A stretch of 64,000 nt of DNA, from the NCBI GenBank assembly GCA_002412625.1, contig DHVK01000012.1, positions 30,145 through 94,144 on the forward strand, in the 5' to 3' direction. Both the position numbers and the translations under genes were made by a program. A model generated the notes under the pieces. The model ran no database searches. It was not told the DNA's origin and was given only the letters and a program-made list of their open reading frames with translations. This DNA is from Cloacimonetes bacterium UBA5210. GTDB taxonomy: Bacteria; Cloacimonadota; Cloacimonadia; Cloacimonadales; Cloacimonadaceae. How positions within the stretch are numbered: position 1 is the first letter of the stretch; each line of letters starts with the position of its first letter. Below are positions 36,487 through 59,168 of the stretch, in pieces.

Positions 36487-36637
36487 CTCTTCCTCCACAA
36501 CTGAAAGCAATATTTTCCCTCTTAATTTCCACATAATCACTGAAAACAGAGGTATTTCCAAACTATCCAAAGCGCAGGATTTCGTCAATATAAATCGCTG
36601 AACACCAAGAGCAGGCCGGATTTACTAAACTAAAACC

Positions 36638-36714
36638 AAGCTGAGTTTAAGCTGTGATCATCGGGTGAGCATAGGAGAATAACAGCACGAAATCAGCTTC
36701 AGTATGATTCGAGG
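36638..36714 (+). repeat. Dispersed structured intergenic repeat, copy E (last one before the foreign region)
   Basis: AAGCTGAGTTTAAGCTGTGATCATCGGGTGAGCATAGGAGAATAACAGCACGAAATCAGCTT..GTATGATTCGAGG. Confidence 0.75.
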
Positions 36715-37159
36715 ACATTAGCTTGGAACTTGGGGGGCTGGGCTTTCAGGACGAAATTCATTGCCTTCCGGATCTGTGATCCTTGCAATAAAGAGTAGAT
36801 CAAAGCCTGAATGCAAGCAGTGCTGTGCAACCTGAACAATGCCAGACTGGATGGAGATGAAAAGCTGATCGCCTTCTGCGAGAACGAACTTAGTAAACAT
36901 CAGTTACTACGCTACCGCGCCCTGCAAAAATTCTGCGCCAAACAACGGAAAAAATCACCCCGAACCTGCAGAATACATCTGCCAACACATTGTTATCCGC
37001 ATGAGATGCTATTGAAGCGAGATTCGCGTTAGTAGGAAGGGGTGAATAAATACCCAAAAAAATAAACAGATATCACTTAACTAGTGATTTTAGAACATAT
37101 AAGCAAGTATACAATGGTTTTTTGGGATGCCATACAAACTAGGTAATAAGGTATATTCT

Positions 37160-37636
37160 CTAATTGCGTTTAAAGATAGACAGAAGCCAACCAATTATGG
37201 TGTGCTTTTTATCATCTCTTTTGATAGGTGAGCAATGGGTTGCATTGATTTCTTTATGATTTTCTGTGTCATCACCATTGGCATTATAAGCATGGCTTCT
37301 AACAAATTCCTCTTGATTCCTACACTCGTTTATTTCTTCTTTTGACCATTGTTTTGCCCATATTACTTGATCATTGGTGATCCAATAGTGAGATTGACAT
37401 TCAAAACTCCAGTTTCCTACGGATGGAAATAATGATATCGTTCTACCATCATACGTCATTTTCCAGTCAATTGGAGAAAGCCGGGTAACAACTTCACCTC
37501 CGCATCCACAACAGCATTTATGAATGATTGTTGAATATTCAATAGAAATATATAGAATCCCATCTTGAATAATATCGGGAATACTATTTACGAATACATG
37601 TCTTAAGTACTTGTGCCTATTCACTTTTGTCTTCAT
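37160..37636 (-). CDS. Cys-rich small protein, DUF6527-like, third gene of the ubiquitination-like operon
   Basis: 158 aa. HKCCCGCGGEVVTRL ... FECQSHYWI looks like a zinc-ribbon Cys/His cluster. It overlaps the upstream E1-like gene by 20 nt. The DUF6527 assignment is from memory of the family and its usual neighbours. Confidence 0.6.
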   Translation of the reverse strand: MKTKVNRHKYLRHVFVNSIPDIIQDGILYISIEYSTIIHKCCCGCGGEVVTRLSPIDWKMTYDGRTISLFPSVGNWSFECQSHYWITNDQVIWAKQWSKEEINECRNQEEFVRSHAYNANGDDTENHKEINATHCSPIKRDDKKHTIIGWLLSIFKRN

Positions 37637-38795
37637 TTACCAAGGCGTTACCATTTAAACAATAAACACTAGAATGCTCATGAGTATCATCATAATAGTA
37701 ACCACAGATTTTTTTCCATTTAATTATTGCTAAAGCTGCACATAATGAATTTAATTCAGCGATTTGTATATCTGATTCGTAAACACCAATTTGTTGAAAA
37801 TCTGTCAATGGGATTCTAGATCTATGATGGTCGCTATATTCTGATGTACAAGTAGTTATTCTTATCAATGCACTAAGCATATCTGATTGCTTTGTTACGC
37901 CTAATCCTGTATCAATAAAGGGGATATGCAGTTCTATCAGTTTGTCTATTATCATTTTCTTTATCTCTGACTTATCGATGCAAATAAAAACGAAATTCAT
38001 TGCAGAAATGTCAATTATATTCTCATCATCAAGATAAACAGCATGTGATGTAATGTTTCGATGCATATTAGAGTATATTCTTTGGAAGTATGTAACTTTT
38101 TTTAGTCCAGCATTTAAATCATCACATGATGGAGCCCCAGGAGCTCGGAATGCATTATGTATAAAAAAGTCATCACCATCATATAGGTGTATTTCTTTCA
38201 CAGGAGTTTTGGCTACGAGATCAAGTATGTATGACCCTGTTCCTCCTAAACCAATAATTCCGATAAATTGATCTTGTAGCTTTTCAGCCAGATGACTAAT
38301 CCCATATATCGATGAAGCAGTATCATAATATTTAAATACGGATTCATTTTCCTCTGTTGCAACGCTTGGAAAGACACAAGGTGTTGCGGATGAATCCAAT
38401 AGACTAACTTGACTAAGCATGATGTTCACATAATTGGTCATCTTTTCATAATAATCTTTGAATTCGTTAGTAGGCCTAGCTGAAAACATATGATTTGATT
38501 TCACTCCTTGGGCTAGTTCTTGTTCAACACTTGAATGCTGAATTTGAAGAATAAGTGTACCGTCACTATTACAAGGAAATTCGCCTGCGAAGTAAACAAC
38601 ATGGTCTGGGGGTTTTGCGACTTTATCACCTTGTTGGGTAAAAGCCGATATTAGAGTTCCCCTTTTGACAATCTTTTCATGATTGAGATAAGGAATACTA
38701 CCTATTAGCAAGAAACCACTTTTAATTTTTAAGTCGTATCCCTCATCTCTTAGTCTTAACAGATCAGGACTATGATTTATTAGTTGCTGTGACAT
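37617..38795 (-). CDS. E1-like ThiF-family adenylyltransferase with N-terminal E2-like domain
   Basis: The C-terminal half carries the Rossmann/adenylation signature FIGIIGLGGTGSYILDL...IHLYDGDDFFIHNAFR. The N-terminal ~150 aa carry DHVVYFAGEFPCNSDG (His-x10-Cys, reminiscent of E2 HPN...Cys). It overlaps the Ubl gene by 26 nt. Confidence 0.75.
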   Translation of the reverse strand: MSQQLINHSPDLLRLRDEGYDLKIKSGFLLIGSIPYLNHEKIVKRGTLISAFTQQGDKVAKPPDHVVYFAGEFPCNSDGTLILQIQHSSVEQELAQGVKSNHMFSARPTNEFKDYYEKMTNYVNIMLSQVSLLDSSATPCVFPSVATEENESVFKYYDTASSIYGISHLAEKLQDQFIGIIGLGGTGSYILDLVAKTPVKEIHLYDGDDFFIHNAFRAPGAPSCDDLNAGLKKVTYFQRIYSNMHRNITSHAVYLDDENIIDISAMNFVFICIDKSEIKKMIIDKLIELHIPFIDTGLGVTKQSDMLSALIRITTCTSEYSDHHRSRIPLTDFQQIGVYESDIQIAELNSLCAALAIIKWKKICGYYYDDTHEHSSVYCLNGNALVNEDKSE

Positions 38796-39051
38796 CGAAG
38801 ATCATACCTTCTTTTACTCTTACAGATTGACCAGCAACCAAAGTGCCCTCAGGCTTATTTCCATGACCTCTGCGATATACCACAGTAAATAAATAATCTG
38901 GCCCTGTTGGTACTGGATCAAAAGCTAATTGAAGCACCTCAGGATACTCTAATTCCCGTGATGTAACAATTTTGGGGCGGCTGTTAACAATAATGTTGTA
39001 CTCATGATTGTTAGCTTTTTCTTCTTGTTCAGTTATCTTTTCATTGTCCAT
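38770..39051 (-). CDS. Single beta-grasp ubiquitin-like protein ('multiubiquitin'-type domain)
   Basis: 93 aa. YNIIVNSRPKIVTSRELEYPEVLQLAF...TLVAGQSVRVKEGMIFDVTATNKS matches my recollection of the prokaryotic Multiubiquitin domain pattern (I.VN......V......L.LA....G.L..G..V.V.DGM.F.V..T). It is the first gene of the coupled operon. Confidence 0.65.
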   Translation of the reverse strand: MDNEKITEQEEKANNHEYNIIVNSRPKIVTSRELEYPEVLQLAFDPVPTGPDYLFTVVYRRGHGNKPEGTLVAGQSVRVKEGMIFDVTATNKS

Positions 39052-39327
39052 TTTAAAAGACCTCCATGTCTTTATTTGTTCTAAGCACTATACATACACA
39101 GTATTGATGCTTTCTTGACAGTCAATTAATGTACACTATCTAGTTTCTTAAACACTCTTTTTATTCCTTTCAAGGAATCGAAACTTAAGAATACTATCCA
39201 TAGCATGGTTAAACTACTTTTATACGGTACTTTCTGTCAAGAATAATTTTGAGTATACAAATTCAAAAATCTTCCACACTAGGTCGAATATGCAAGTGTA
39301 CCAAGTGCATTTCGTTAGAACTATGCT

Positions 39328-40974
39328 CTAAAACTCTATCTCCCCTTGAAAGACTTTATTTTTCTTTATCTCCGGTTTCCTAAACGGGTCTATCGCAGTA
39401 TTAGGCAGATGCACAGGTATCGGATTGGCAAGCAGTTGTTCTGCGGTAACTATCTGGATGCGGGGTATCGAAAATGCTTGACTCATCTGAATTAGACGAT
39501 ATTCAAACTTACCTGCTTTCGCTGCTTCTTCGATCATGCCACGAGTTGGCTCTACCAGTGTTATCAGTATCCCAAAATCTGCATTCTGGCTTTCCACAGT
39601 TCCCTTGAGGTCTCGCACCATCGCGGGATTGATACTCTTTCCACCTTTTACGGAGATAATCCCTTTCCCCACACCGTTTTTCTTGCTGGAATCTATGAAG
39701 TTAATCACCCCATCCACCCCTTTATCACCTGTTTTTACCGTAGGTATGGCGTTTAGCTGGCTAACAGCCCACACTTCAAACTGGAAGGGATCTTTTTCTG
39801 CCAGTTTTGAGGCAGAGAGAAGGTCTTTAGGGGTGCCTTTCACCACAAAGTCCTTTCCTTCCATTATCTTATTCTTTTCGAAGCGTTTCTTGATTACGTC
39901 TATGGATAGATAGGTAATATCCACACCGATCCAATTTCGGTTTAGCCTTTCTGCCACAGCTACAGCCGTTCCACAACCGCAGAAGGGATCAAGGATTACG
40001 TCCCCTTCGTTGCTACCGGCTTTAATGATGCGCTCCAACAAGGCTTCAGGTTTCTGCGTAGGATAGCCTAAACGTTCCTCTTTAGGTGCTATTTTTATAT
40101 CTGTCCAAATATCTGGGCATTTATTACCTTCCATCTCATCTAAGTATCTTATATAGCGAGGGTTTCCACTCTTTGTGTGTAGTATTCGACCCTCTTTGTC
40201 TAATTGTTCCATCTTCTCAATATTATAGACAAAACACCTTGAGGCTGGTGGCGTATAACCCTTCCAAGAATAAACTTGCCCTTTGGATGCTCTTGACATT
40301 GGGGCAGTTAAATCTGTTGCTTGATATCTTCTTCCATTTTCATCTACGTGAGAATAGAAAGCATCTGTATATTCTTTATCATAATCCATAAATTGCTGAT
40401 TCCATTTCCAGTCATTGGTTTTGGAATAAAATAGAATTACGTCATGTATCCAACCAAATTTCTTCTGCACATTGCCTTTGGAATCTGTTCTTTTCCATAT
40501 AATTTCGTTCCTAAAGTTACTTGTCCCAAATACTGCATCCATCAGTAACTTAAGATAGTGGCTGGCAATGGGATCACAATGCAGATAGATACTCCCTGTA
40601 GGCTTCAATACCCGTTTCATTTCCATCAATCGGGGAGCCATCATGCACAGGTATGCCATCAGCGGACAAGCATCCAGATAGCTGCGCATTGCCTTCATCA
40701 AATCTATCAATTTCTGCGGAGGATGCGTTTTCGTTAAGGTGCCCATGATCAGGCTATTATATTCGTCTTCGGCTTTTTCGCCCCAAAGCCAAGTATCTTC
40801 AAATGTTTCTATCTGTGAAGTAGCGCCTTTCACGCCGTCTTTTTCGGGCTTGAAGATGATATTATAATTCCTTCCGCTTTGAAAGGGCGGATCCAGATAG
40901 ATCAAATCTACAGACTCATCTTTAATGTGCTCTTTCATGATGTCCAGATTATCACCATAGTACAATGTATTCAT
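39328..40974 (-). CDS. N6-adenine/N4-cytosine DNA methyltransferase (beta-class) fused to a C-terminal Mrr-like restriction-endonuclease domain
   Basis: Motif IV DPPFQSG lies near the N-terminus and AdoMet motif I VILDPFCGCGT lies later (beta-class order). The C-terminal ~150 aa carry FQFEVWAV...GDKGVDGVINF...GIISVKGGKS (D...x-K PD-(D/E)xK-like, Mrr_cat-like). Confidence 0.8.
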   Translation of the reverse strand: MNTLYYGDNLDIMKEHIKDESVDLIYLDPPFQSGRNYNIIFKPEKDGVKGATSQIETFEDTWLWGEKAEDEYNSLIMGTLTKTHPPQKLIDLMKAMRSYLDACPLMAYLCMMAPRLMEMKRVLKPTGSIYLHCDPIASHYLKLLMDAVFGTSNFRNEIIWKRTDSKGNVQKKFGWIHDVILFYSKTNDWKWNQQFMDYDKEYTDAFYSHVDENGRRYQATDLTAPMSRASKGQVYSWKGYTPPASRCFVYNIEKMEQLDKEGRILHTKSGNPRYIRYLDEMEGNKCPDIWTDIKIAPKEERLGYPTQKPEALLERIIKAGSNEGDVILDPFCGCGTAVAVAERLNRNWIGVDITYLSIDVIKKRFEKNKIMEGKDFVVKGTPKDLLSASKLAEKDPFQFEVWAVSQLNAIPTVKTGDKGVDGVINFIDSSKKNGVGKGIISVKGGKSINPAMVRDLKGTVESQNADFGILITLVEPTRGMIEEAAKAGKFEYRLIQMSQAFSIPRIQIVTAEQLLANPIPVHLPNTAIDPFRKPEIKKNKVFQGEIEF

Positions 40975-41151: not shown

Positions 41152-42498
41152 TCATCGCTCTGTAAACGCATCCAAATATAAGTTCAGACCTGTGCATAAA
41201 CCCAAATGGAGGTTTAGCAGATGAAACTGCTTTCCGGAAGGGGTTGACAATGTTTCCCAATTAGTTTGCCCATCATAAATTCTTACTGCCAGATCATGAT
41301 CAGCTTCCTCCATGAACAGCAATAAGGATTTTAAAGTTCCGGACTTACCTGCCTTCACTTCGATGGGTATCATGCGCTTCCCCCGGATAATCACAAAATC
41401 TACTTCCGCACTCGAATTGCGGGCACTTCGGTTCCAAGTTCCCAGTTCGAAACCGTCTCCGGCAGCCTTTGACAGCAACTGTTGCCCCACCAGATGCTCC
41501 ATGGCCACACCTTTGTAGATGGAGTTCAGCCCTTGATTAGTGAAGTATTGCTCGTGGATATTAGCCTGGAGATTCACGAATCCAGTATCAAGAAAGAGCA
41601 GTTTGGGTCGTTTGCTCAGCTTTGGCAAAGAGGGTAACACCGCATTGCCATAGGGATGCAGCAGTTGCAACAATGAAGCCTGCTCCAACAAAGTGAAGGC
41701 ATTTTTTACGGTTTGAGACCTGAAATCGGATTCTCCAAAATGCTCGAAACTGATCAATTTGCAAGCCTGTGTAGGCGCAGTGTTGATCAAATGCCCTAAA
41801 ACATTGGCCTGATCTCCGGATGCGGCGTATTTTACGGCATCATCGCGATAGGTTTGCAGGAGGTTGCCCAAAATCCTGCGAACATCCATGATATTGCCGG
41901 TTGCCAGCCAAACCCTGATCACTTCCGGCATGCCGCCCACCAAGGCATATTCCAGAAATTTCTCTCTTAAAACAGGATATGCCCAATCCGGGAAAGGGAT
42001 TGTGCCCAATAGCTCCAGCACTTGATCTTGTCCCGCTGCTTGCAAATACTCTTCGAAGTTGCAGGGATGCATCCAAAGATACTCAACCCTACCCACCGGA
42101 ATCTCCAACCGATTACGCTTCAGATATACATCCAGCAAAGAACCTGCAGCAATCACATATAGTTCGGGCATCTTTTCGTAAAAGTAACGGAGGCTAAGCA
42201 GCGCTTGCGGCGAATGCTGAATCTCATCGATAAACAGCAAAATCCTTTTCCCCCGGGCATGAACACCCTTTTTAAGCAGGATGAGATTAAACAGCGAGTC
42301 AACATCAGTGCCGTCAATGAAGATATCACGCTCTGCAGGCACTTCCAGATTGAGCTCGATGAAGCAGTCGAATTCGCTTCCGAACATCCGAACTGCGGTA
42401 GTCTTACCTACTTGTCGGGCTCCACGCAAAACTAATGACTTCCGATAGGGACTTTTTGACCACTCTCTCAGCTGATTAATTATCTGACGATTAAACAT
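41152..42498 (-). CDS. AAA-family ATPase with DUF4143-type C-terminal domain
   Basis: Walker A RGARQVGKTT and Walker B LLFIDEIQ. The C-terminal EVDFVIIRGKRMIPIEVKAGKSG is a PD-(D/E)xK-like motif typical of AAA_14/DUF4143 proteins. Confidence 0.8.
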   Translation of the reverse strand: MFNRQIINQLREWSKSPYRKSLVLRGARQVGKTTAVRMFGSEFDCFIELNLEVPAERDIFIDGTDVDSLFNLILLKKGVHARGKRILLFIDEIQHSPQALLSLRYFYEKMPELYVIAAGSLLDVYLKRNRLEIPVGRVEYLWMHPCNFEEYLQAAGQDQVLELLGTIPFPDWAYPVLREKFLEYALVGGMPEVIRVWLATGNIMDVRRILGNLLQTYRDDAVKYAASGDQANVLGHLINTAPTQACKLISFEHFGESDFRSQTVKNAFTLLEQASLLQLLHPYGNAVLPSLPKLSKRPKLLFLDTGFVNLQANIHEQYFTNQGLNSIYKGVAMEHLVGQQLLSKAAGDGFELGTWNRSARNSSAEVDFVIIRGKRMIPIEVKAGKSGTLKSLLLFMEEADHDLAVRIYDGQTNWETLSTPSGKQFHLLNLHLGLCTGLNLYLDAFTER

Positions 42499-42567
42499 CT
42501 CGATCTCCTAATTCACAATTGGTTCAAATAAATGGAGATAGAAAATCATGTCAAGGTAATTGTAGCC

Positions 42568-42628
42568 ACAAAGTCATCCAAATCCAAGGGTGTTTTGCCT
42601 ACAAAGTCATCCAAATCCAAGGGTGTTT
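42568..42628. repeat. Tandem direct repeat, 2 x 28 bp (period 33 bp)
   Basis: ACAAAGTCATCCAAATCCAAGGGTGTTT occurs at 42568-42595 and again, identical, at 42601-42628. Confidence 0.95.
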
Positions 42629-42676
42629 CACTAAAAGTCGGTCTAATCAGTAACTATCTTTGCTGGATATAAAGAG

Positions 42677-42889
42677 TCAGTGAAAACTTCAATTTGGCTC
42701 ACTGAAAACTTCAAGTGGCAAAATCGGTGGTATTTTGGGCACTTCCCATGGTGGCATTTGGATCACTGATTTCTTCAAATGGCTCACTGAAAACTTCAAA
42801 TGGCTCACTGATTTCTTCAAGGAAAGGTCACTGATTTCTTCAAGAAAGGATCACTGATTTCTTCAAGAAAAGGTCACTGATTTCTTCAA
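42677..42889. repeat. Iteron-like array: 8 copies of the 16-bp motif TCA(C/G)TGA(AAAC/TTTC)TTCAA
   Basis: Copies start at 42677, 42699, 42763, 42784, 42805, 42828, 42851 and 42874. The last six are spaced 21-23 bp apart (about two helical turns). The region is non-coding. Confidence 0.95.
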
Positions 42890-42904
42890 ATGGGTTTTGA
42901 GGAT

Positions 42905-43595: not shown

Positions 43596-44252
43596 TTAGT
43601 AGTACAAGGCGATGATCTGGTACTTCCCTTCCTGTGCATCGAAAACCTGCCCTATGCCGATGGTTATGGTGACCTGAGTACCATCCAGTTTGATGTCGGC
43701 TATATACAGGAAGCAATTGCACTGGTTGGTCAGGATGATATGGGGAATGGTATTGTATTCCTTATCAAGCTTGTGAGAGATGAACCTGTCGTCTCTGATG
43801 CTGGCAGGGGTAGCTTGAGTCTGATCTCCGATTCCCTTATCCTGATCTTGAAGCTCGTGCTGCAGCTTTGAAAGAGTGAACACGCTGTTATCAAGATGAT
43901 TAGCAGATACTGCTCCATTGGCTATCTTGCTTCCGGTTACCACTCCATCCAAGATGTGATTGCCGTAGATACAGTCGTTCTGCAGACCCCTGGCATCGAG
44001 TTTACCGATGGTACAGGTCTTGCCTCCGAAGCTGCCATTGGGGTTGCCACGATTGTCCCAGATCTCATAGAAACCGCAATCGGCTTCAGTTTCGATCAGG
44101 CATTCATAATAGCCTGAGTTTTCGGTTTCATTGAGCCTGATCCCACTCTGCCAGTCGGCTCCGGGTCTGAGTAAACGAACATCCACTCCAGACTGAGGCT
44201 TCCTTGCCCCGTCTTCCATTATATAGTAGCTGATTCCATATTTGAACATCAA
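43596..44252 (-). CDS. Phage tail-tip/receptor-binding-type protein (hypothetical)
   Basis: It is the last gene of the tail block. Call is by position only. Confidence 0.4.
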   Translation of the reverse strand: MMFKYGISYYIMEDGARKPQSGVDVRLLRPGADWQSGIRLNETENSGYYECLIETEADCGFYEIWDNRGNPNGSFGGKTCTIGKLDARGLQNDCIYGNHILDGVVTGSKIANGAVSANHLDNSVFTLSKLQHELQDQDKGIGDQTQATPASIRDDRFISHKLDKEYNTIPHIILTNQCNCFLYIADIKLDGTQVTITIGIGQVFDAQEGKYQIIALYY

Positions 44253-44263
44253 TGCTCCTTCTG

Positions 44264-44716
44264 TTAGTTTGATGTTACAGTGTCGTTATCGTCTTCAATG
44301 ACAATGATTCCGAAGTCGATATAGCCAGGTGATCCGATGTATCTGGATTCGAGTGAGAACTTGACCTTCTCAGGATACTCATGCAGATCATCCGGACACT
44401 TGGGGAACTGAGAGACTGTGACCGGGAACTGGCTCTTGACTTCGTTATAGGCGGTGTATTCGAGAAAGAGTCTGCCAGTTGAGGTAATGAAGCTCATCAG
44501 GGTATAATACTCATCAGGATTGAGGGTTGCCTGCAGATCAAAGGAATCCTCCCTGTATTCATCTCTTTGATGCAGGATGGAAGGATCAAAGGCATTCTTC
44601 TTCTCGATGCGGTACTTACGACGGGGAGAGTATTCTACCTGCCCGGTGGTACAGTTAAAGTAGTATGTTCCTTGAGTGCTGAGTCGGATCAGTCTCCAGC
44701 CCTTTATAGCAGCCAT
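44264..44716 (-). CDS. Phage hypothetical tail-associated protein
   Basis: It overlaps the upstream gene by 13 nt within the tail block. No motif. Confidence 0.4.
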   Translation of the reverse strand: MAAIKGWRLIRLSTQGTYYFNCTTGQVEYSPRRKYRIEKKNAFDPSILHQRDEYREDSFDLQATLNPDEYYTLMSFITSTGRLFLEYTAYNEVKSQFPVTVSQFPKCPDDLHEYPEKVKFSLESRYIGSPGYIDFGIIVIEDDNDTVTSN

Positions 44717-46191
44717 GCTTTCACCTTGTATTCATCATTTATGTAGTCTCTCTCCAGTTCGGTAATGGCATAAACCTTATTCTGGATGCGTATCTTGGAC
44801 TGGAGTGAGAGATTGTATTTGGCAAGCTGATCGATAGTCGTTTCTACGCTCCACTTAGAGTCATAGAAGTCGATCAGGTAGTCTTTGATCAGCCCTTGCA
44901 GTTGATTGGTATCGCCACCCAGGACATCGATGGTTTTGATATCGGGTTTCTCTTGGTTGCCACGCTTGACGATAATGGATACCACATCCTCATCGGCTAT
45001 GTTGTTTATGACAGTGGCATAAGCATCCTTGTTCTTGAGGATGATGTTACCATTGGCAGTGGTGAAGATAGTGGCATTATAGAGCATCAGCATCGCTTGC
45101 AGGGCTTTGAGGTTATCGGTCTGCTCCTCTTGTAAGGTCTCATAAGCCTCTCCGGGCTGTAGCTTAGCCGGGAAGAGATTGCCATGAAAGTGAGCTTCGA
45201 TCCAGTGACCAACGTACTGGCTGCTACCATAGCTTCTGCCATCTAACAAGCCCGTACTGCTGAGTCCCGTGAGGAGGGTAGTACTGGAGATGCCATTATC
45301 ACCAAAGAAGCTGAGGAACTCGTTATAGGCATTATCCAGAGAGGGCAGGTCTTCCACCCAGTCGGTCTTTTCATCATATTCGGATACTACCGGACAGATG
45401 CTGTTATAGAACTTGAAGACTCGACCTCGGTATCTTCCCTGATAGCGTGTGGTGGCAGGACTGGGATAGGTAGCCTGGATCACCTTCTTATAGGCAAAGA
45501 CAAAGGTGATCTTGTTTGCTGCCGTATCCACGATGTAACCCCAAAAGGGTCCCGGCCATCCACTGCTGTGATGAGAGTAGGTCCAGCCTCCGGGGGGATT
45601 GGGAAACTGGATCAGGTCATCGAAATCGATGTGAGCGATGGTTAATGAGTCGCCCGAACCGATATTCATGGTTGGAGGGGTGAACTGATTAGTATAAGGA
45701 ATAGAGATTGGGATAGTCTGTTCAATATCCTGCAAGAAGTAACCGAGTATCCAGATTGGCAGATATCCTGCAGTTAGGGAATAGTAGTGAGTGAGATCGG
45801 AATAGACGGACAAGAGCTTGATCTTATCGTAACAGGTGAACTTGAGGATGCCGGAGCTTACATCGAAGGACAACTGGGAAGTATCGATGATGCCTGTAAA
45901 AAACAGAAAATTATCCCGATAGACCCTAACTTCAAAGTGGGATATATACCGCTCATATTCATTGGTTCCGGAGAGGATGTTATCCTGTATCCAGACAGTC
46001 GGGAAACACTCGAAAGTGAGTCGCTTGGGTTCTCTACTATAGTTGGATACCGCTTGCAGCTTATCGGCTGAGACACTTAGAGTGATGATAGCTCTACTAG
46101 TTGCAGTATCCACCAGGCTATGTTTGATCTGGTTATAGTCGGTTGCATCCGTATTGCCTTGCACGAAGTCTATCTTAAATAGATTCGGCAT
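44704..46191 (-). CDS. Phage distal-tail/baseplate-type structural protein (hypothetical)
   Basis: 495 aa, immediately downstream of the tape measure gene with adjacent stop and start. Call is by position. Confidence 0.45.
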   Translation of the reverse strand: MPNLFKIDFVQGNTDATDYNQIKHSLVDTATSRAIITLSVSADKLQAVSNYSREPKRLTFECFPTVWIQDNILSGTNEYERYISHFEVRVYRDNFLFFTGIIDTSQLSFDVSSGILKFTCYDKIKLLSVYSDLTHYYSLTAGYLPIWILGYFLQDIEQTIPISIPYTNQFTPPTMNIGSGDSLTIAHIDFDDLIQFPNPPGGWTYSHHSSGWPGPFWGYIVDTAANKITFVFAYKKVIQATYPSPATTRYQGRYRGRVFKFYNSICPVVSEYDEKTDWVEDLPSLDNAYNEFLSFFGDNGISSTTLLTGLSSTGLLDGRSYGSSQYVGHWIEAHFHGNLFPAKLQPGEAYETLQEEQTDNLKALQAMLMLYNATIFTTANGNIILKNKDAYATVINNIADEDVVSIIVKRGNQEKPDIKTIDVLGGDTNQLQGLIKDYLIDFYDSKWSVETTIDQLAKYNLSLQSKIRIQNKVYAITELERDYINDEYKVKAWLL

Positions 46192-49020
46192 TTATACCTC
46201 ACTCCTGATCATCTTGCCGGTATCAGCTATCTCGGATACCCTAACCGGGTCATTACTCAAGGGATCAACATTTATCTCGAAGTTGGGCTTGTTATCGGCT
46301 ATGCTCTGCCGGAGAGAACTGAACTCCTCCCGCACCACGGAGACGATGGTGTTCATGATCGCAGTCATACTGCCTCCACCGGAAACAGTGCCACCAGAGC
46401 CATAATATGAGCCCAGGTTGGCAGGCATGGGCACTGAAGGGATAGGCAGACCTGCAAATGCAAGCTTCACCTTTTCGATAGGTGCGAAGTTGAGGAAGTC
46501 AAAGAGGTTCCTACCCAGTGCCTTGACTCTGTCCTTGGCAGTGATGTACTCGTTACCTTCAGCTTCAATCAGGATGCCACCCTCACTATGCGCTTTACCG
46601 ACTAATAGTCCTCCGCTGGCTGCCTTGGGTGGCTCAGTGGATTGGATCACTGCGATATTGGCAAGCCCGGCTCCTATTGCTGCCGCAGCAGCGGTGACTG
46701 CCAGTCCGGGTCCGACCACAGGAATACCAACCATAGACTTATAGGCTGCTGTGGCAGAGGCATAGGTGTCTATCATCGCCTGTCCGATAGCCAGGGTCTT
46801 CCACATGGCAAAGCCTTTCTTACCGAAGATCTCTGAAGTCTTGGCAAGGTCACGCATGATCTGCTGGGCACCTTGCAGGTTCCGCATCTCATAGTCGTTC
46901 CGAATCCGAGCCTTGGCAGCTTCGCTTTGGGCTGTGATCTGCTGTTCGGTAAATCCAGCAGCCAGAAGCTTCTCTCTGCGCTTGGCATAGTACTGTTCTA
47001 TGGCTCTCAGCTCCGCATCCCAGGTTCTATCTGATAGTTCCAAGCTCCGCTGAGTGAACTCGAAGCGGGTATCCAGGAGTTCCTGCTGTTGCCGTCTCTC
47101 TTCTTCAAGCACCTTGCGTCTGGCTTCGGTTTCAGCTTCAATCTGAGCAGATCTGGCTTCGCTGGCTTCTGTCTCCACCCTGACCGACTCATCGGCATAG
47201 TGATCCCTGATAGACTGCAGAAGAGTCTCAGATGCTCCTAAGGACTGAGCCTTGGCAAGCTCTGCATCCCGCTGGATTTCGAGTTCCTTCTGTTTTCTAA
47301 GAACTGCATCGTCAATAGATAGCACATCATACTTCTGCTGTAACTGCCTAAGCTGTTCAAGCTGTCTCTGTCTCTCATCTATGAGCCTCTGAGCGTTATC
47401 AGTACCAGATGAGGATGATTCACCAGCATTACCGGAGTCAAAGCTCAGGTCCGGAGCTTCAAGCATCGCCTGTCTATAGGCTGCACCTATCTGCTGCAGA
47501 TCGTACTTGGCCGCTTGCAGTTGTCCCGTCAAAGCACCGAACTGGTTCAAGCGGCTTTCTAACTTGTTCCACTCTCCATCATTCCCGAAGTATAATGCAG
47601 GATTGAAGCCCATGGCATTGCGGTCACTGGTCAGGAAATCCCAATCCACTGAGTTCATCAATTGCTGTTTGCGGGCTCGGACCCTATCTACCTCAGCCTG
47701 TTGGGAGTCGATCTCAATCTGCAGCTCGGCTACCCTCCTGATCTGAGCATTATACCTCTCTCCATAAACTTCAGCTATCTGTTTCTGCACAAGTGCCTCT
47801 GAAGCATTCCGCAAGGCCGTTGCCAGGTTATTGTAAGATGATGTTTCGAGATCGATGTTGCCTATGTACTCAGAGTAGTTCTCATTGAGTGACCGGATGA
47901 TGTTCTTCATCTCGGTCTTATCTGATACCGTAAGTGAACTGGCAGAGCGTAACTCCAGGAGCCTGGAAGCCAGTAAAGAGAACTTCTCGGCTTCCACCGA
48001 GACCTGTTTCTGAGCTTCTTTGATCTCATCGTTCATAGAACGCTGTGCTACAGTTACCGTATCAGTCTTTACCGAGGCTGCTGCCAGCCCTAAGCCCAAG
48101 GCAGACAATGCACCCACAGCAATACCGATAATCCCTGCCACCGGGTTTATAGCTACCTGCAGAGCATGATAGGCAGCGGTCAAGGCAGTGATAGTGGTTG
48201 TAATAGTTCCGATCAAAGGAATGGCTACTACTATACCGGCAACGAAGCCTTGCATGACCGGAGATAAGCTCTGATAGGCATCCATCAGCCAGCGAAGACC
48301 CTGAAGTAACGGATTGATCAGAACTGTCAGCATATCGCCCACTGTCTCCTGGATGTCTCCCCAGGCATTGGCATTCTGCAATCTCAAATCAGCCAGAGCG
48401 ATAGCTGTGCCACCATAGTCCTCTCCTAACTTCTCAACCAGGTAAGACACCCCTTCAGTCTTGAGCCGGGTATCATCAAGCTCGATGCCATAGCGTCCCA
48501 GCATCTCGGTATGACCATTCAATGCCCGACCCATAAGATCAAATGCACTTTCCACGCTCATCCCGGTGGCTTTGTTGGCTTCGGTAAAGTCCAGCAGAAG
48601 TGGCACAAGCTGTTGTATCTCATCCTTATTCAGCTTGAAGGTCTGCGAGAGTTTGGACATCAAAGCCAGCAGTTGATCATCCTCGAAGTTAGTTAATGAC
48701 TGCATGGCAGAGGCAAACTCACCCATCTCAGCCGCAGCTTCTCCAAAGGCTATCTTTGCCAAAGTAACCGCTTGTCTCTGAGCCAGTGATGCATCCAATA
48801 AACCATTCATGGAACGCACCAGACCACCGACTACCTGGATCACTCCATCGACTGCGATCTTCACATCACGAATGGTAGCCAGAGCCTGTTCTGCAGATAT
48901 CTTGACTGCAGCAGGTTTCTCCACCACAGACTGGGTGGACTCCGCTTCCTGCTTGACTTCGGCAAGCTTCACATTGGCATCGTCTGTGACGAGGATGAGT
49001 TTGAAAGTTAGGTCAGGCAT
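46192..49020 (-). CDS. Phage tail tape measure protein
   Basis: 942 aa. Long Ala/Gln/Glu-rich coiled coils, internal hydrophobic Gly/Ala-rich TM-like segments (GFVAGIVVAIPLIG..., VGPGLAVTAAAAAIGAGLA) and a typical position. AGAGG RBS upstream. Confidence 0.88.
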   Translation of the reverse strand: MPDLTFKLILVTDDANVKLAEVKQEAESTQSVVEKPAAVKISAEQALATIRDVKIAVDGVIQVVGGLVRSMNGLLDASLAQRQAVTLAKIAFGEAAAEMGEFASAMQSLTNFEDDQLLALMSKLSQTFKLNKDEIQQLVPLLLDFTEANKATGMSVESAFDLMGRALNGHTEMLGRYGIELDDTRLKTEGVSYLVEKLGEDYGGTAIALADLRLQNANAWGDIQETVGDMLTVLINPLLQGLRWLMDAYQSLSPVMQGFVAGIVVAIPLIGTITTTITALTAAYHALQVAINPVAGIIGIAVGALSALGLGLAAASVKTDTVTVAQRSMNDEIKEAQKQVSVEAEKFSLLASRLLELRSASSLTVSDKTEMKNIIRSLNENYSEYIGNIDLETSSYNNLATALRNASEALVQKQIAEVYGERYNAQIRRVAELQIEIDSQQAEVDRVRARKQQLMNSVDWDFLTSDRNAMGFNPALYFGNDGEWNKLESRLNQFGALTGQLQAAKYDLQQIGAAYRQAMLEAPDLSFDSGNAGESSSSGTDNAQRLIDERQRQLEQLRQLQQKYDVLSIDDAVLRKQKELEIQRDAELAKAQSLGASETLLQSIRDHYADESVRVETEASEARSAQIEAETEARRKVLEEERRQQQELLDTRFEFTQRSLELSDRTWDAELRAIEQYYAKRREKLLAAGFTEQQITAQSEAAKARIRNDYEMRNLQGAQQIMRDLAKTSEIFGKKGFAMWKTLAIGQAMIDTYASATAAYKSMVGIPVVGPGLAVTAAAAAIGAGLANIAVIQSTEPPKAASGGLLVGKAHSEGGILIEAEGNEYITAKDRVKALGRNLFDFLNFAPIEKVKLAFAGLPIPSVPMPANLGSYYGSGGTVSGGGSMTAIMNTIVSVVREEFSSLRQSIADNKPNFEINVDPLSNDPVRVSEIADTGKMIRSEV

Positions 49021-49112: not shown

Positions 49113-49937
49113 ATGAAAAAGAAAATGAAAAGAGGATATGTAGCCATGTTAGATGTCCTCGGATTTAAAGAGTATCTGAGCAAAAGACAAAACTTTGATT
49201 TTTTCTCTTTGTGGAAACAGCTTAAAAAAGAGCTCAACGATCAAAAATATTGCATAGAAAAAGAGATTCAAGGATTTGAAGATTATTGGCATCTTGATGT
49301 GTTATGCCTTTCGGACACATTGGTGTTATGCCTTTCCTGCACAGATGAAAACGAGGAAAATAGAACTATTTTATTAGCGCATATAGTGATCATTTTGGAC
49401 TCCTTTATTGACAGGTACTTTAAACAAGGTATTTATTTTAGAGGGGCTATTAGTTATGGCGACTTCATATGCGATACGAAACAAAATATCGCTATGGGAA
49501 ACGCTATAGATGAAGCATCCGAATGGCACGACAGCACAGATTGGATTGGCATCATTCTTGCTCCTAGTGCTAAATATGCTTACGAAAAAATCATACTTGA
49601 AATACCCATTAATCATCCTTGGAATGGTGAGCTACAAAAACTAGTGAATTATGAAGTTCCTTTTAAATTCAACACATCTTACAAAACACGGGCTTTTATT
49701 TGGTTCAACATACCCGATGGTATTTATATGAGAGGGCTGAAGTTACACGGTTTTTACAGGTTACTATCAAAATCCACTTACTCAAAAACTGTAATAGGCA
49801 AGTATGCTAACACAATCAAATTCATCGAAACAATTTTATCTGTTGATCGGGAAGAGTTCCTGTTAGAGGACGCTAAGAGAAGGAATGATAAGACATCAAA
49901 CTTACTTATAATTCCTAATGAGCAACTCGATTTGTAA
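49113..49937 (+). CDS. Class III nucleotidyl-cyclase/GGDEF-fold-like protein with unknown C-terminal domain (AT-rich moron)
   Basis: YVAMLDVLGFKEY (compare VTVLFADIVGFT), LCLSDTLVLCL (compare iGDavma), IYFRGAISYGDFI and MGNAIDEASEWHD (compare RIGIHTGPV / GDAVNLAARLE). GGAG lies 6 nt before the ATG at 49113. GC is ~27% in a spot count, and the gene runs opposite to the flanking phage genes. Confidence 0.55.
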   Translation: MKKKMKRGYVAMLDVLGFKEYLSKRQNFDFFSLWKQLKKELNDQKYCIEKEIQGFEDYWHLDVLCLSDTLVLCLSCTDENEENRTILLAHIVIILDSFIDRYFKQGIYFRGAISYGDFICDTKQNIAMGNAIDEASEWHDSTDWIGIILAPSAKYAYEKIILEIPINHPWNGELQKLVNYEVPFKFNTSYKTRAFIWFNIPDGIYMRGLKLHGFYRLLSKSTYSKTVIGKYANTIKFIETILSVDREEFLLEDAKRRNDKTSNLLIIPNEQLDL

Positions 49938-50681
49938 CTGAAAACTGCCTGAAACAGTGTACTGCGCTTCGACTTCATCAATGGCGAAGCCTTGGTAGAG
50001 TGTGCGGATGTAAGGGTCATTGTTGTAGGATAGCAGGAACTTCCCTTTGATGTTTTTCAGTGCGGATGCCAGCTCTGCATGCTTGGTAAATGCGTCTGCG
50101 TCTTCTCTGTCGTATAGATGCTCCTTGGTGTAATAGGGTGGGTCGAGGTAGAAGAAGGTGTTGGGCGTATCAAAACGGGCAATGATCTTCTCAAAGTCTT
50201 GCTTTTCGATAATCACCTGCTTGAGCCGTTCCGAGGCAGCTTTTACCTTCTCCAGGTTTCGCAGTGGCATGTATTTATAGCCCTGCATGATGCAGAAGTT
50301 CTTGCTGCGTGAGCCGTAGCTGCAGGATAACTGGAAGTAGAAACGGATAGCCCGTTCAAGTTCTGTTTTGGGCTCATGTTGGGTGAACGTGTCGAACATC
50401 TCCCTGGATACCAAGTACTGGTTCAACTCGGTAACAAACGCTTCAGGATGCTGCTTAACGTACTTCCAGAAGTTCACCAGATCACCATTGATGTCGTTAT
50501 AGACTTCAGTGTATCTGCTCTTCTTGGACAACTGCCAGTCTTCCTTGTTGGCTGATTTCCCGAACAGTATCCAGGCAGCACCGCCAAAGACTTCACAGTA
50601 GATGTCGTGCTTGGGGATGAGAGGCAGTATCTTCTTTCTCAGGAGACGCTTGCCACCTACCCATGAGATGATACTATTCAC
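49902..50681 (-). CDS. Dam-family (D12 class) N6-adenine DNA methyltransferase, copy 2
   Basis: WVGGKRLL, EVFGGAAW (motif I) and YLDPPY (motif IV). 4-nt overlap with the upstream paralog. Confidence 0.88.
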   Translation of the reverse strand: MNSIISWVGGKRLLRKKILPLIPKHDIYCEVFGGAAWILFGKSANKEDWQLSKKSRYTEVYNDINGDLVNFWKYVKQHPEAFVTELNQYLVSREMFDTFTQHEPKTELERAIRFYFQLSCSYGSRSKNFCIMQGYKYMPLRNLEKVKAASERLKQVIIEKQDFEKIIARFDTPNTFFYLDPPYYTKEHLYDREDADAFTKHAELASALKNIKGKFLLSYNNDPYIRTLYQGFAIDEVEAQYTVSGSFQLQIELLIRNYK

Positions 50682-51496
50682 GATATCCCCCTGATCTCTT
50701 TGGTGGTTTTAGCTTTGGTCTTGGCTGTATCCTGATCGGTATCCACGAGGTCGAAATTGGCGATGATCACTTCATTGAACTCGGACTTGCCTTCCTTACG
50801 GTTGATACCCTTGGTTCTGGTGACGTGCCTGATATCATAGCCTTTGTATAGCTTCAGTACTTCCGGGTTGTCATCATAGGAGAGGATAAACCTTCCCTTG
50901 ATGTTCTTCAAGATGTCTCTCAGGGTTTCATGGCTGAACTGCTTGGAGTTTTCGTAAGTGTAACCAAGCATGTAAGGCGGATCGCAATAAAAGAAGTTGC
51001 TCTTGGTGTCGTACTTCTCTATCACTTTCTCATAAGAGAGGTTCTCGATGATGACCATGTCCAGTCTTCTGTGCAGTTCCTTGATGCGTTCCAGACGGTT
51101 ATACATACTGGACGTGCCACGCTTCTGAGATGTACCAAAGCTGTCACCTTTGCTTCCGAATGATCTGGTGATGAGGAACATGAACCGGGCAGCTCTCTGT
51201 ATCTCGGTTAAGCCTTCCTGCTTGAGGATATCGCCAAAGAGCTTGCGACTGGCAACCAGAAAGTCCAGTTCTTTGATCAGCTCATCCGGGTGATACTTCA
51301 CTTGTAGGAAGAGATTGACCAGGCGATAGTCGAGATCATTATAAACTTCCAGATCACCCCACTTGTCTTTGAAGAGCAGCATCCAGGCAGCACCACCGAA
51401 GGGTTCAATGTAGCCCTGAATGTCCTTGGGAACGTATTGTGAGATAGTTTTGCGGAGGAGGCGTTTACCTCCGATCCAGCCGATCAGTGCATCCAT
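50678..51496 (-). CDS. Dam-family (D12 class) N6-adenine DNA methyltransferase, copy 1
   Basis: WIGGKRLL, EPFGGAAW (motif I) and YCDPPY (motif IV). It has a Lys/Thr-rich C-terminal tail. Confidence 0.88.
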   Translation of the reverse strand: MDALIGWIGGKRLLRKTISQYVPKDIQGYIEPFGGAAWMLLFKDKWGDLEVYNDLDYRLVNLFLQVKYHPDELIKELDFLVASRKLFGDILKQEGLTEIQRAARFMFLITRSFGSKGDSFGTSQKRGTSSMYNRLERIKELHRRLDMVIIENLSYEKVIEKYDTKSNFFYCDPPYMLGYTYENSKQFSHETLRDILKNIKGRFILSYDDNPEVLKLYKGYDIRHVTRTKGINRKEGKSEFNEVIIANFDLVDTDQDTAKTKAKTTKEIRGIS

Positions 51497-51596
51497 TAGA
51501 TGTCTCCTTTCATACTTGTCAGGCAGAGCCGTAGGTAGAGCTCCGGTAGAGTGAGGTTAGCGAAGTCCTCAGTAGTGAAGCCAAGCTTACGCATTA

Positions 51597-51947
51597 TCAT
51601 TTCGAAGCTCTCGTAGGGGTATTTTCCTGCACCTTGACCGCTAATCCGAAACTCCCGAGCCAAGCGCTGAACCTCTCTTTGCTGGCTCTGATATAGACGA
51701 AAAAAGCAGAGATATGCTCCAAGGCTTCCAAGGCATCCATTGTATCAGGGTCTTGGTTAGAGATGATGCGGATCAGCTCTTTATCGGCTTCTGATTGGGA
51801 GATGATCTCCAGCAGTTCCAGTTCACTGACCTTGGTTACCTTGCCGGAGAGGAAGTCCTCCAGCTTGGCTTTCAGTGTCGTATTGGAGATAGTGAGGCAG
51901 AGTATCTGCCGCAGTTGTTTATAGCTGAGTTGGGGTTCTCGCTTCAT
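51597..51947 (-). CDS. Phage hypothetical protein (tail assembly chaperone by position)
   Basis: A small acidic protein between the tail-protein gene and the tape measure region. The start is set at the ATG at 51947. Confidence 0.35.
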   Translation of the reverse strand: MKREPQLSYKQLRQILCLTISNTTLKAKLEDFLSGKVTKVSELELLEIISQSEADKELIRIISNQDPDTMDALEALEHISAFFVYIRASKERFSAWLGSFGLAVKVQENTPTRASK

Positions 51948-51963
51948 GGTTTGTTTTCCTTTT

Positions 51964-52164
51964 CTATTGTCCAAAGAACATCTTGATGGCAACGCCGATC
52001 AGCATGAAGAACTGGGTAGTGGAGACGCCCAGAAGCAGCTTCATGTTCGTCTCCACTCTCGCCATACGAGTTACCAGTGAGTTATTGCTGTTACCATTGC
52101 CGTAGATCTCCTCATGCACACTGTCGATGCGCTGTTTGATCTCGGGTTTGCATTGGCAATCCAT
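51964..52164 (-). CDS. Small phage protein with C-terminal TM helix
   Basis: 66 aa. The C-terminal hydrophobic segment is LLLGVSTTQFFMLIGVAIKMFF. Confidence 0.4.
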   Translation of the reverse strand: MDCQCKPEIKQRIDSVHEEIYGNGNSNNSLVTRMARVETNMKLLLGVSTTQFFMLIGVAIKMFFGQ

Positions 52165-52187
52165 GTTTAATCCTTGTGTTTCGATGA

Positions 52188-52739
52188 TTATGCTCCGACT
52201 GGAAGATCCTTAAACAGGTAAATCTTACCTGCAGTCACTCCGGAGAACTCAGTGCTGATAACGACCGTGAACAGACCATCAGCTTCACCCGACCAGTCTA
52301 CTGTCCAGCGTAAGCCATTAAAGATCACTGCGCGGTCTTTACCCTTAGATACGATTACGATAGTCGTGTTCTTGCCCATGAATGAGCTACTCTCAAGGAA
52401 GTCTTTCTGCTTCACAGAGAGACCTACAATACTGAGTTCGATGGTTGAAGTGCGCTTGCCGGGAATGCTGTAGTTCCGGGTCTTGAGCTTGGTGATCTTT
52501 GAATCGGTTTTGCCCGGCTTCTCGGCAAGTTCACCTAAGATGTCATAATTGGTACTTAGCTCGAGGTTAAGGGCAGTCTGGTTGATAAAGTGGGCAGCGA
52601 TATCAAGATCAGTGTAAGTGCCTATCCCGAAGTAGATATCATCGGCAATCATCCCCTCAACTAAAGAAACGAAGTTGAGGTCTTTATCAATCATGGTGCC
52701 CGGATAGACCGGGGGTGTTACAGATGGAGTGGGAGGCAT
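52188..52739 (-). CDS. Phage major tail protein candidate
   Basis: 183 aa and beta-rich, located upstream of the chaperone/TMP region. Call is by position only. Confidence 0.4.
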   Translation of the reverse strand: MPPTPSVTPPVYPGTMIDKDLNFVSLVEGMIADDIYFGIGTYTDLDIAAHFINQTALNLELSTNYDILGELAEKPGKTDSKITKLKTRNYSIPGKRTSTIELSIVGLSVKQKDFLESSSFMGKNTTIVIVSKGKDRAVIFNGLRWTVDWSGEADGLFTVVISTEFSGVTAGKIYLFKDLPVGA

Positions 52740-53090
52740 CTAAAATACTCCCTTGATGGCTTTGCCGATACTGAACAGCCACTTACGGTTGTGGAAGACA
52801 TATTCCACCGCTCCCCCGATAGTGCCGAAGATCTTCATGACCAGATTGGTTTGGTTACTGGGGAGGCTCTTGGTAGCCCGCTCGACTGCCAACTGCTTCT
52901 TGGCATAGTCATCGAGGTCCTTGGTGGCAGGATTGATCTTGATATCCTGGATGATATCGAGGATGATCGCCAGAGCGGAGTTGATCTTGGTCTTATCCAA
53001 GGTCTTACCCGTTATCTTGAAAATGATCCAGACGATCAGGGTGGTGATAAGCCCTAAGATGAAGGCTTGATTGGCAATGATGAAGTCCAT
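52740..53090 (-). CDS. Small phage membrane protein
   Basis: N-terminal TM helix FILGLITTLIVWIIF. Adjacent stop and start with the downstream gene. Confidence 0.4.
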   Translation of the reverse strand: MDFIIANQAFILGLITTLIVWIIFKITGKTLDKTKINSALAIILDIIQDIKINPATKDLDDYAKKQLAVERATKSLPSNQTNLVMKIFGTIGGAVEYVFHNRKWLFSIGKAIKGVF

Positions 53091-53117
53091 TGATACTCCT
53101 TATGTTTTGGTTATTGC

Positions 53118-54860: not shown

Positions 54861-55022
54861 GTAATCTCCTTGTTATTGTTTTGAGTTCATGATTTTATGC
54901 TAAGCCATAATGACAAACCACCATGCCTAACTGTGCGACAGTTTTAGTTAAGCATCGATGAGATTTTACTTGTGCTATTTATGGTGGTTAAGAGACTTGT
55001 ACAAAATGAATAGGGAGAATAT

Positions 55023-55979: not shown

Positions 55980-56002
55980 TTAATTATGTTAAAATTCCAA
56001 TG

Positions 56003-58962: not shown

Positions 58963-59168
58963 TGTGTCTCCTTGCGATGTCAGTGGATACTCTATCCAGT
59001 GCAAGGAAGCCACTACCCTGTATAAACACAAATATGGATGCATAAGGTTGCGACAGATTTTAGTATTGACAGAATCTGACCTTTGAAGCATTAGTAATTA
59101 CCATGAAGAAACATTTACAGGATTTGTCATGGTCGGTGAGAAACACATTGTGATGGAGACGAGTAGTT

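Follow-up and report, generated by a model that had tools for sequence, protein, structure and literature searches.

Organization of the locus

We analyzed a stretch of 64,000 nucleotides (nt) of contig DHVK01000012.1 from Cloacimonetes bacterium UBA5210 (the window, whose numbering is used throughout) and examined a compact operon of three minus-strand genes in it, named here bubA, bubBD and bubE after the Bub protein-conjugation systems of bacteria. Bub operons, formerly known as 6E or DUF6527 operons, were defined by Ye, Gong, Chambers and Corbett (Ye et al., bioRxiv 10.1101/2024.11.21.623953). In Type II (6E.2) they encode the ubiquitin-like protein (Ubl) BubA, the E2-E1 fusion BubBD and the DUF6527 protein BubE, typically without a JAB peptidase. 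The locus studied here encoded Multi_ubiq, DUF6791 plus ThiF, and DUF6527 proteins on one strand, in the gene complement and order of Type II Bub. Judged from its sequence, it is a complete Type II operon, BubA-BubBD-BubE with a single-domain Ubl, and is apparently functional. An earlier reading of this DNA, made from the letters alone (the original prediction), had proposed a ubiquitin-like conjugation operon and had pointed to 'Bub' pathways, one subtype of which has an E2-E1 fusion. That proposal was supported in substance; the subtype corresponds to the Type II (6E.2) architecture, and the system is one already known as Type II Bub.

The layout proposed earlier, three coupled genes with overlaps of 26 and 20 nt, was exactly reproduced from the open reading frames (ORFs), and expression of the operon is probably translationally coupled via these overlaps. 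The locus had also been called an AT-rich island, and its guanine-plus-cytosine (GC) content was indeed 35.3% against 52.1% for window positions 1-36596; along the operon GC ran at 31-39%, compared with ~51% in the left flank. All the motifs quoted in the original prediction (IIGLGGTGSYILDL, LYDGDDFFIHNAFR, DHVVYFAGEFPCNSDG and CCCGCGG) were found. A GGAGG sequence lay 9 nt ahead of the bubA ATG, and a terminator scan at the operon scored no better than shuffled sequence. Identical proteins are recorded in the metagenome-assembled genome GCA_002345525.1 (contig DDWG01000044.1), where they are annotated as hypothetical. Coordinates of all features are collected in Table 1.

Sequence and structural analysis of the Bub proteins

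BubA matched Pfam Multi_ubiq (PF14452) with an E-value of 4.3e-16 (59 bits against a cutoff of 24.5). When Protein Data Bank (PDB) sequences were searched with phmmer, residues 17-93 matched the crystallized BubA of E. coli ZDHYS365 (9cd2, named 'multi-ubiquitin domain protein') at E=7.8e-12. By homology to this solved structure BubA is predicted to be a beta-grasp, ubiquitin-like protein, as had been suspected from its multiubiquitin pattern. It has a single beta-grasp domain (Ubl1 type) behind an acidic N-terminal tail of ~16 residues; a single domain is found in 40% of Bub Ubls (companion paper to Ye et al.). BubA ends in ...T-N-K-S93 (Ser93 codon, 38773-38775). This C-terminal Ser was invariant in 75/75 BubA homologues of related loci, all Ser-terminated at lengths of ~90 to 360 amino acids (aa) and with the pattern T-x-[K/R/Q]-S, and the published E. 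coli BubA sequence likewise ends in TDKS. Type I BubA and ubiquitin-like proteins generally end in Gly instead. The main text of neither Bub paper comments on the C-terminal Ser of Type II BubA.

The C-terminal half of BubBD was found to be the ThiF/E1 adenylation domain that had been proposed (PF00899, residues 170-298, E 1.4e-12), with the nucleotide-binding loop GLGGTG at G182-G187. The protein also belonged to the NCBIfam equivalog PRK06153.1-4 (525 bits, cutoff 352). We aligned BubBD with 29 database homologues and, separately, with the BubBD proteins of 80 genome loci. Arg217 was kept in 76/76 homologues and Tyr339 in 75/76. Ser105, Arg217 and Tyr339 aligned to S106, R219 and Y342 of E. 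coli BubBD. The sequence used for the latter was machine-read from Table S2 of Ye et al. and carries small errors. The Tyr letter was dropped in that reading, so that the pairing of Tyr339 with Y342 rests on alignment position and invariance. The crossover loop, in which Tyr339 lies, had no catalytic Cys. We modelled full-length BubBD with AlphaFold2 (AF2) and obtained a predicted local distance difference test (pLDDT) score of 80, with Tyr339 next to a low-pLDDT loop (334-338). The best Foldseek matches of this model were to Citrobacter BubCD (9eav/9ea5/9ea4, E 6e-12 to 1e-11), ahead of ThiF, MoeB, UBA5 and MccB; this search was dominated by the E1 domain and is uninformative on the E2-like domain. 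By sequence, BubBD matched TcdA and Citrobacter BubCD in the PDB.

The N-terminal domain of BubBD matched DUF6791, in addition to the PF14452, PF00899 and DUF6527 matches that had been foreseen, all of which were obtained for the three proteins. Its predicted nucleophile, Ser105, stands in HMFS105AR107P, which aligned to HWFS106NK108P of E. coli (shared motif FSx[K/R]P). Ser105 and His65 were each kept in 75/76 homologues and Cys75 in 72/76. The original prediction had likened a His...Cys arrangement in this domain to an E2 active site, but the nucleophile that is both conserved and supported by published work is Ser105, which forms an oxyester. The spacing given as His-x10-Cys is actually H65-x9-C75, and the residues named for mutagenesis as Cys95 and Ser97 are really Cys75 and Ser77, off by 20; positions 95 and 97 are Ala and Gly, and Ser77 is unconserved. 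Position 107 is Arg here, Lys in 70/76 homologues and Arg in 4/76. This Lys-to-Arg change was the sole deviation from the published Type II catalytic residues, and it should not matter, since mutation of K108 in E. coli BubBD leaves activity and does not abolish conjugation (Ye et al.). Cys75 falls within an HPN-like (H/F)-P-C-N motif of the domain. The Bub family has been described as without a conserved catalytic cysteine (Ye et al.), and the mutations given in the text and legends of that preprint (S106, K108, R219 and Y342) include no equivalent of Cys75. An AF2 model of residues 1-142 (pLDDT 91, predicted TM score 0.85) showed N-terminal helices, a four-strand meander, a loop with the P-C-N motif, a beta-hairpin that has Ser105 at its end, and lastly a single long C-terminal helix.

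BubE matched Pfam DUF6527 (PF20137, E 9.3e-24), a family labelled 'BubE' in precomputed Pfam matches, and was 41% identical to an E. coli BubE. From the alignment we predicted a C4 zinc site formed by Cys41, Cys43, Cys45 and Cys80 and a Ser72/His83 dyad; these residues aligned to C57/59/61/99, S92 and H102 of the Citrobacter protein. Conservation was complete for C41, C43, C45 and S72 (76/76) and nearly so for C80 and H83 (75/76 each). BubE also carries a hydrophobic C-terminal tail, TIIGWLLSIF, an extension of the type described by Ye et al.

Conservation of the operon among relatives

A scan of one genome per species yielded at least 571 related loci, and the best 80, from many bacterial phyla and some archaea, were analyzed. 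A BubE homologue lay directly downstream of bubBD in 80/80 and a BubA homologue directly upstream in 78/80; in both loci without BubA, the match begins within ~120 nt of a contig end. The three genes, whose co-conservation had been suggested as a check, thus occurred together in 78-80/80 loci. Recurrence of the gene order and of the 26-nt overlap in 78-80 of the 80 puts the A-BD-E arrangement far outside what chance would give. Among other neighbours only one recurred, a divergent HTH_3 plus Peptidase_M78 pair (CapH/CapP type), upstream in 38/80. We counted 7,133 family proteins at E<=1e-10 among 8,000 candidates scored; the operon was carried by 136 plasmids, and Type II Bub occurred in 3/5,426 complete E. 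coli genomes. As one more ordinary copy from a large, already described family, the locus brings no new category of system.

The junction between bubA and bubBD was itself conserved. With gene starts taken as called, 59/78 loci had the bubA stop 26 nt into bubBD, and the others differed only because a longer ORF start had been called; 72/74 unique sequences had a bubBD ATG at -26, and the nucleotides of this stretch were highly conserved column by column. The overlap consensus was ATGTCACAGCAACTGATAAATCGTAG, with bubBD in frame +1 relative to bubA and with TAG as the bubA stop in 66 sequences and TAA in 8. Here, the last eight codons and stop of bubA (D-V-T-A-T-N-K-S*) are also the start of bubBD (M-S-Q-Q-L-I-N-H-S); in relatives, the same overlap encodes the BubA C-terminus N-V-T-A-T-D-K-S and the BubBD N-terminus M-S-Q-Q-L-I-N. 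We found no discussion of this dual-coding overlap in the two Bub papers. The 20-nt overlap between bubBD and bubE is not conserved in length, since this junction was -4 nt in 37 loci and -20 nt in 8.

Assignment to Type II Bub and proposed mechanism

The closest characterized system is the Type II Bub operon of E. coli ZDHYS365 (BubA WP_053069300, BubBD WP_063617865, BubE WP_074146335). Both operons have the same three genes in the same order, an E2-E1 fusion of ~392-398 aa and no JAB peptidase, and they share the Ser in FSx[K/R]P, the Arg in HNxFR, the crossover-loop Tyr, the CxCxC...PS...CxxH signature of BubE and a BubA ending in ...T-[DN]-K-S. In a global alignment of the two BubBD proteins (392 vs 398 aa), 159 residues were identical. 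The operons differ in that BubA has one beta-grasp domain here (93 aa) and three in E. coli (222 aa), in the Arg that replaces Lys108, and in their setting, a prophage border in an uncultured Cloacimonadota host as against a tRNA-inserted element.

Type I Bub (6E.1) of Citrobacter sp. RHBSTW-00271 (BubAB, BubCD, BubE; PDB 9ea4, 9ea5, 9ea8, 9eae, 9eav) resembles our locus in its E1 adenylation domain, which gave the best structural match, in its Tyr/Ser oxyester logic and in its BubE protease family. In Type I, however, the Ubl is fused to E2 and a JAB peptidase to E1, and both fusions are absent here. To be set free, the Type I Ubl is cut behind a C-terminal Gly, whereas BubA here ends in Ser, and the E2 serine is accompanied by His and Asp in Type I but by Lys and His in Type II. 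Type I Bub was ruled out, as BubA has a 93-aa ORF of its own and E1 is preceded by DUF6791 rather than JAB.

The best explanation of the data, to which we assign a probability of roughly 0.88, is a Type II Bub conjugation operon that works by the mechanism known from its characterized relatives and that was acquired horizontally at the border of a prophage-containing insertion beside dapA. Several observations weigh against this explanation. A Foldseek search of BubBD residues 1-142 against the PDB returned no match at E<=0.001, and its weak E2 matches, among which 7uv8 (Rad6), 2h2y (a Plasmodium E2), Atg10 (4ebr) and UFC1 recurred, had TM scores of 0.35-0.43 at E ~0.4-1. Alignment of the N-terminal profile of BubBD with Citrobacter BubB and with human UBE2D2 by hhalign gave nothing significant. 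The mechanism rests on one preprint, from in vitro work on an E. coli homologue ~40% identical, and a phage-defence phenotype was found for no Bub operon (Ye et al.). BubBD was present in none of 50,697 deposited phage genomes. Homologues of the DNA-damage-responsive regulators CapH and CapP were absent from the whole window by tblastn, and a sigma-70 consensus promoter scan upstream of bubA showed no enrichment over shuffled sequence.

A profile hidden Markov model of the family matched only E1-type proteins among PDB sequences, and the E2 assignment of the N-terminal domain rests on Pfam family membership, a compatible topology, published AlphaFold3 models and the S106A mutant; it was neither refuted nor independently confirmed. 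CapH plus CapP are a frequent association at 31% and CapW/BrxR at 8%, and neither is obligatory (Ye et al.). Since such regulators are not a defining feature, the missing CapH/CapP leaves membership in the family unaffected. Our literature search on Bub function retrieved nothing beyond the Ye et al. preprint and its companion paper. A biological role of the operon, antiphage or in the stress response, is inferred only from its context and is putative for the family as a whole.

We transferred the mechanism to this locus from the characterized E. coli and Citrobacter systems. E. coli Type II Bub conjugates BubA in an ATP-dependent manner, and this activity is lost in BubBD R219A, Y342F or S106A; Bub enzymes use Tyr and Ser oxyesters in place of Cys thioesters, and BubE is a zinc-dependent Ser/His protease that takes BubA off conjugates (Ye et al.). 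By analogy, the ThiF-like domain of a BubBD homodimer would bind BubA and adenylate the Ser93 carboxylate with ATP, aided by Arg217. The crossover-loop Tyr339 would attack the adenylate to give a BubA~Tyr oxyester, and BubA would then pass to Ser105 of the E2-like domain, probably of the opposite protomer, as a second oxyester before being moved onto a lysine of a target. BubE, as a zinc-stabilized Ser72/His83 protease with a hydrophobic tail, may strip BubA from targets and so restrain the pathway. Apart from Bub, no ubiquitin-like conjugation system is reported to work entirely through oxyester (Tyr, Ser) intermediates.

It is doubtful, though conceivable in view of the C-terminal Ser, Cys75 and the conserved overlap, that the Bub family uses chemistry beyond this published model. 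Cys75 could work together with Ser105, either in target transfer or as part of a thioester relay, and the 26-nt overlap might be more than a coupling device, for example the site of a +1 frameshift yielding a product that mimics the Ubl-E2 fusion of Type I. The locus is a compact example of the system, with a single beta-grasp Ubl, no regulator and a precisely mapped insertion border, in an uncultured member of the Cloacimonadota from anaerobic environments. Its border context, together with the C-terminal Ser, Cys75 and the dual-coding overlap, could help in the design of functional experiments.

Genomic context of the operon

The flanking M16 peptidase puts the host in the Cloacimonadota (Cloacimonadaceae), and sister genomes were found via relatives of this protein. 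They share the dapA-M16-RsgA-NADK-RecN block, and the region upstream of their dapA is occupied by a housekeeping ParA/CbiA-type Fe-S cluster. In blastn comparisons, homology to two sister Cloacimonadaceae contigs ended at window position 36596/36599, and GC fell at the same point. Because sister homology stops at ~36,597 and the ParA/CbiA-type Fe-S cluster is missing here, the DNA from 36.6 kb to the window end is strain-specific. The operon lies on horizontally acquired DNA, with 35% vs 52% GC and a synteny break at 36,597, and it occupies the edge of a single strain-specific insertion measuring at least 27 kb. As predicted earlier, its neighbours are dapA (PF00701) on one side and an N6_N4 methyltransferase-Mrr_cat fusion on the other. 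Around the insertion we found no tRNA genes, Rfam RNAs or att-like direct repeats. The spacer between border and operon, perhaps left over from the insertion junction, contained only one ORF (73 aa, plus strand, 36811-37032), which had no Pfam match.

Table 1. Positions of the operon, its predicted functional sites and neighbouring features in the window
Feature	Positions	Strand	Description
Left border and spacer	36597-37159	.	Synteny/GC breakpoint; 560-nt non-coding spacer up to bubE stop
bubE	37160-37636	minus	158-aa DUF6527 protein, ATG start
BubE His83 codon	37388-37390	minus	Predicted catalytic
BubE Ser72 codon	37421-37423	minus	Predicted catalytic
bubBD/bubE overlap	37617-37636	minus	20 nt, translational coupling
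bubBD	37617-38795	minus	392-aa E2-E1 fusion, ATG start
bubBD ThiF/E1 domain (BubD part)	37617-38288	minus	Residues ~170-392
BubBD Tyr339 codon	37779-37781	minus	Crossover loop
BubBD Arg217 codon	38145-38147	minus	In HNAFR, aligned to E. coli HNSFR
bubBD E2-like domain (BubB part)	38319-38768	minus	Pfam DUF6791, residues 10-159, E 1.5e-51
BubBD Ser105 codon	38481-38483	minus	Predicted E2 nucleophile
BubBD Cys75 codon	38571-38573	minus	In P-C-N motif
bubA	38770-39051	minus	93-aa ubiquitin-like protein, ATG start
bubA/bubBD overlap	38770-38795	minus	26 nt
Intergenic region upstream of bubA	39052-39327	minus	276 nt, presumed promoter region, without regulator gene
N6_N4 (beta-class) methyltransferase fused to C-terminal Mrr_cat/NA-iREase1-like nuclease domain	39328-40974	minus	548 aa
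AAA_14 + DUF4143 ATPase	41152-42498	minus	PADLOC PDC-S01 candidate defence family, full length, 1.9e-151
Tandem-repeat tract	42552-42894	.	Between AAA_14/DUF4143 gene and 133-aa plus-strand ORF
Four tightly packed genes (942, 495, 150, 218 aa)	43596-49020	minus	No Pfam matches
Two adjacent Dam-type D12 methyltransferases	49902-50681, 50678-51496		
XkdF-type protease fused to virion structural domain (protease-capsid)	53118-54860		
Portal protein	56003-57199		
Lysozyme	58537-59091		
Dcm methyltransferase, 360-aa protein, Vsr	59169-61819		

Beyond the operon, the insertion carries prophage structural genes at 43.6-59 kb (tape-measure, portal, protease-capsid and lysozyme). This setting raises a different view of the role, as distinct from the biochemistry, of the operon: that it belongs to the adjacent prophage-like region, not to an independent defence island, and serves that element as an accessory module, for instance in superinfection exclusion or in counter-defence by tagging host or competing-phage proteins. 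Its place between the tail end of the structural module and host dapA, within the same strain-specific insertion, favours such a role, as do three contigs of the IMG/VR collection in which Type II Bub stands beside a serine integrase, inovirus Zot/replication genes or head genes. Against it, searches of the window turned up neither a terminase nor an integrase nor an att repeat, and GC differed between the operon (35%) and the structural genes (46-51%), which suggests separate origins for the two. The absence of BubBD from the deposited phage genomes makes prophage cargo atypical of the Bub family, and only 3-4 of 2.9 million IMG/VR viral contigs carried BubBD. We consider service to the prophage to be the less probable role, with perhaps one chance in five.

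The border position could mean that the system serves phage-phage or phage-host conflict; if true, this reading would open a route to the target. One of the three IMG/VR contigs (IMGVR_UViG_3300013102_000221) has Type II Bub at its end, together with genes for a Zot-like protein and a replication initiation protein (inovirus-type), which suggests that filamentous phages can carry Type II Bub.

Alternative readings of the conjugation proteins

We also weighed a reading in which the proteins form a sulfur-carrier or cofactor pair of the ThiF/MoeB-ThiS/MoaD kind, or an MccB/PaaA-like peptide-modifying adenylase, so that the beta-grasp protein would be thiocarboxylated or modified and not conjugated. 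The E1 domain does match ThiF, MoeB, TcdA, MccB and PaaA in sequence and fold, and the homodimeric ThiF/MoeB/UBA5 enzymes share with BubBD a Rossmann-type adenylation domain, a GxGxxG loop and a conserved Arg (Foldseek E ~1e-9). These enzymes, however, have no N-terminal DUF6791 and act on carriers ending in Gly-Gly, and the crossover loop of UBA5 works through a Cys. The C-terminus of BubA is a Ser and not Gly-Gly; the neighbourhood contained no genes for thiamine or molybdopterin or for a sulfurtransferase; the strongest matches were to Bub-specific families and structures; and the homologous system makes ATP-dependent protein-protein conjugates. This reading is very improbable.

Still more improbable is a CBASS (cyclic oligonucleotide-based antiphage signalling system) Cap2/Cap3 or Bil module, whether whole or as a decayed fragment, given that the weak PADLOC 'E1-E2' (Cap2-like) matches to BubBD (E 3e-7 and worse) were limited to its adenylation domain (residues ~170-290), that its crossover loop has no catalytic Cys and that no CD-NTase, JAB peptidase or effector lay nearby. 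PADLOC (2023) contains no Bub model. Bil and Cap2 resemble the Type II Bub operon as bacterial E1/E2-based protein conjugation carried in mobile or defence loci, but their chemistry relies on catalytic cysteines (thioesters) and their deconjugase is a JAB enzyme; in Bil the multi-domain E1 is a protein of its own, and CBASS conjugates a CD-NTase instead of a Ubl. None of these features was present here. Since all three ORFs are intact with conserved catalytic residues, the operon is not a remnant. The original prediction had set aside CBASS and Bil on similar grounds. Its remark that JAB deubiquitinase and CD-NTase were lacking held for the adjacent genes; a deconjugating protease is nonetheless present, in the form of the DUF6527 protein BubE.

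Neighbouring genes and other Bub loci

The methyltransferase-Mrr gene, which had no separate restriction gene adjacent to it, is probably an independent defence or epigenetic gene. A functional link of this gene or of the AAA_14/DUF4143 gene to Bub was ruled out, as they occurred near 2/80 and 0/80 related loci, respectively. The repeat tract consisted of ~9 copies of a 21-23-nt unit with the core TCACTGA(A/T)(A/T)(A/T)CTTCAA and of a 33-nt unit present ~2x; it could be an iteron-like or regulatory binding array at a module boundary.

The four tightly packed genes beyond the repeats were considered as a novel defence operon, which was ruled out when the 942-aa protein (46192-49020) matched tail tape-measure families of PHROGs (6.5e-14); they are probably prophage tail genes. 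A weak PADLOC Cas7 match among them (6e-4) is likely spurious. The genes at 49902-61819 make up a prophage-like stretch rich in restriction-modification genes. The Dcm methyltransferase, 360-aa protein and Vsr probably form a type II restriction-modification system with a very-short-patch repair endonuclease.

A distinct Type II Bub was observed in E. coli CP61_Sichuan (NZ_CP053730.1, 1330625-1343035), one of the three complete E. coli genomes with the system. It encodes a BubA of 251 aa, differs from the published ZDHYS365 operon, is flanked by ISVsa5 (IS4-like) copies and lies directly downstream of genes for a 1,136-aa UvrD-helicase-domain protein and two small hypothetical proteins.

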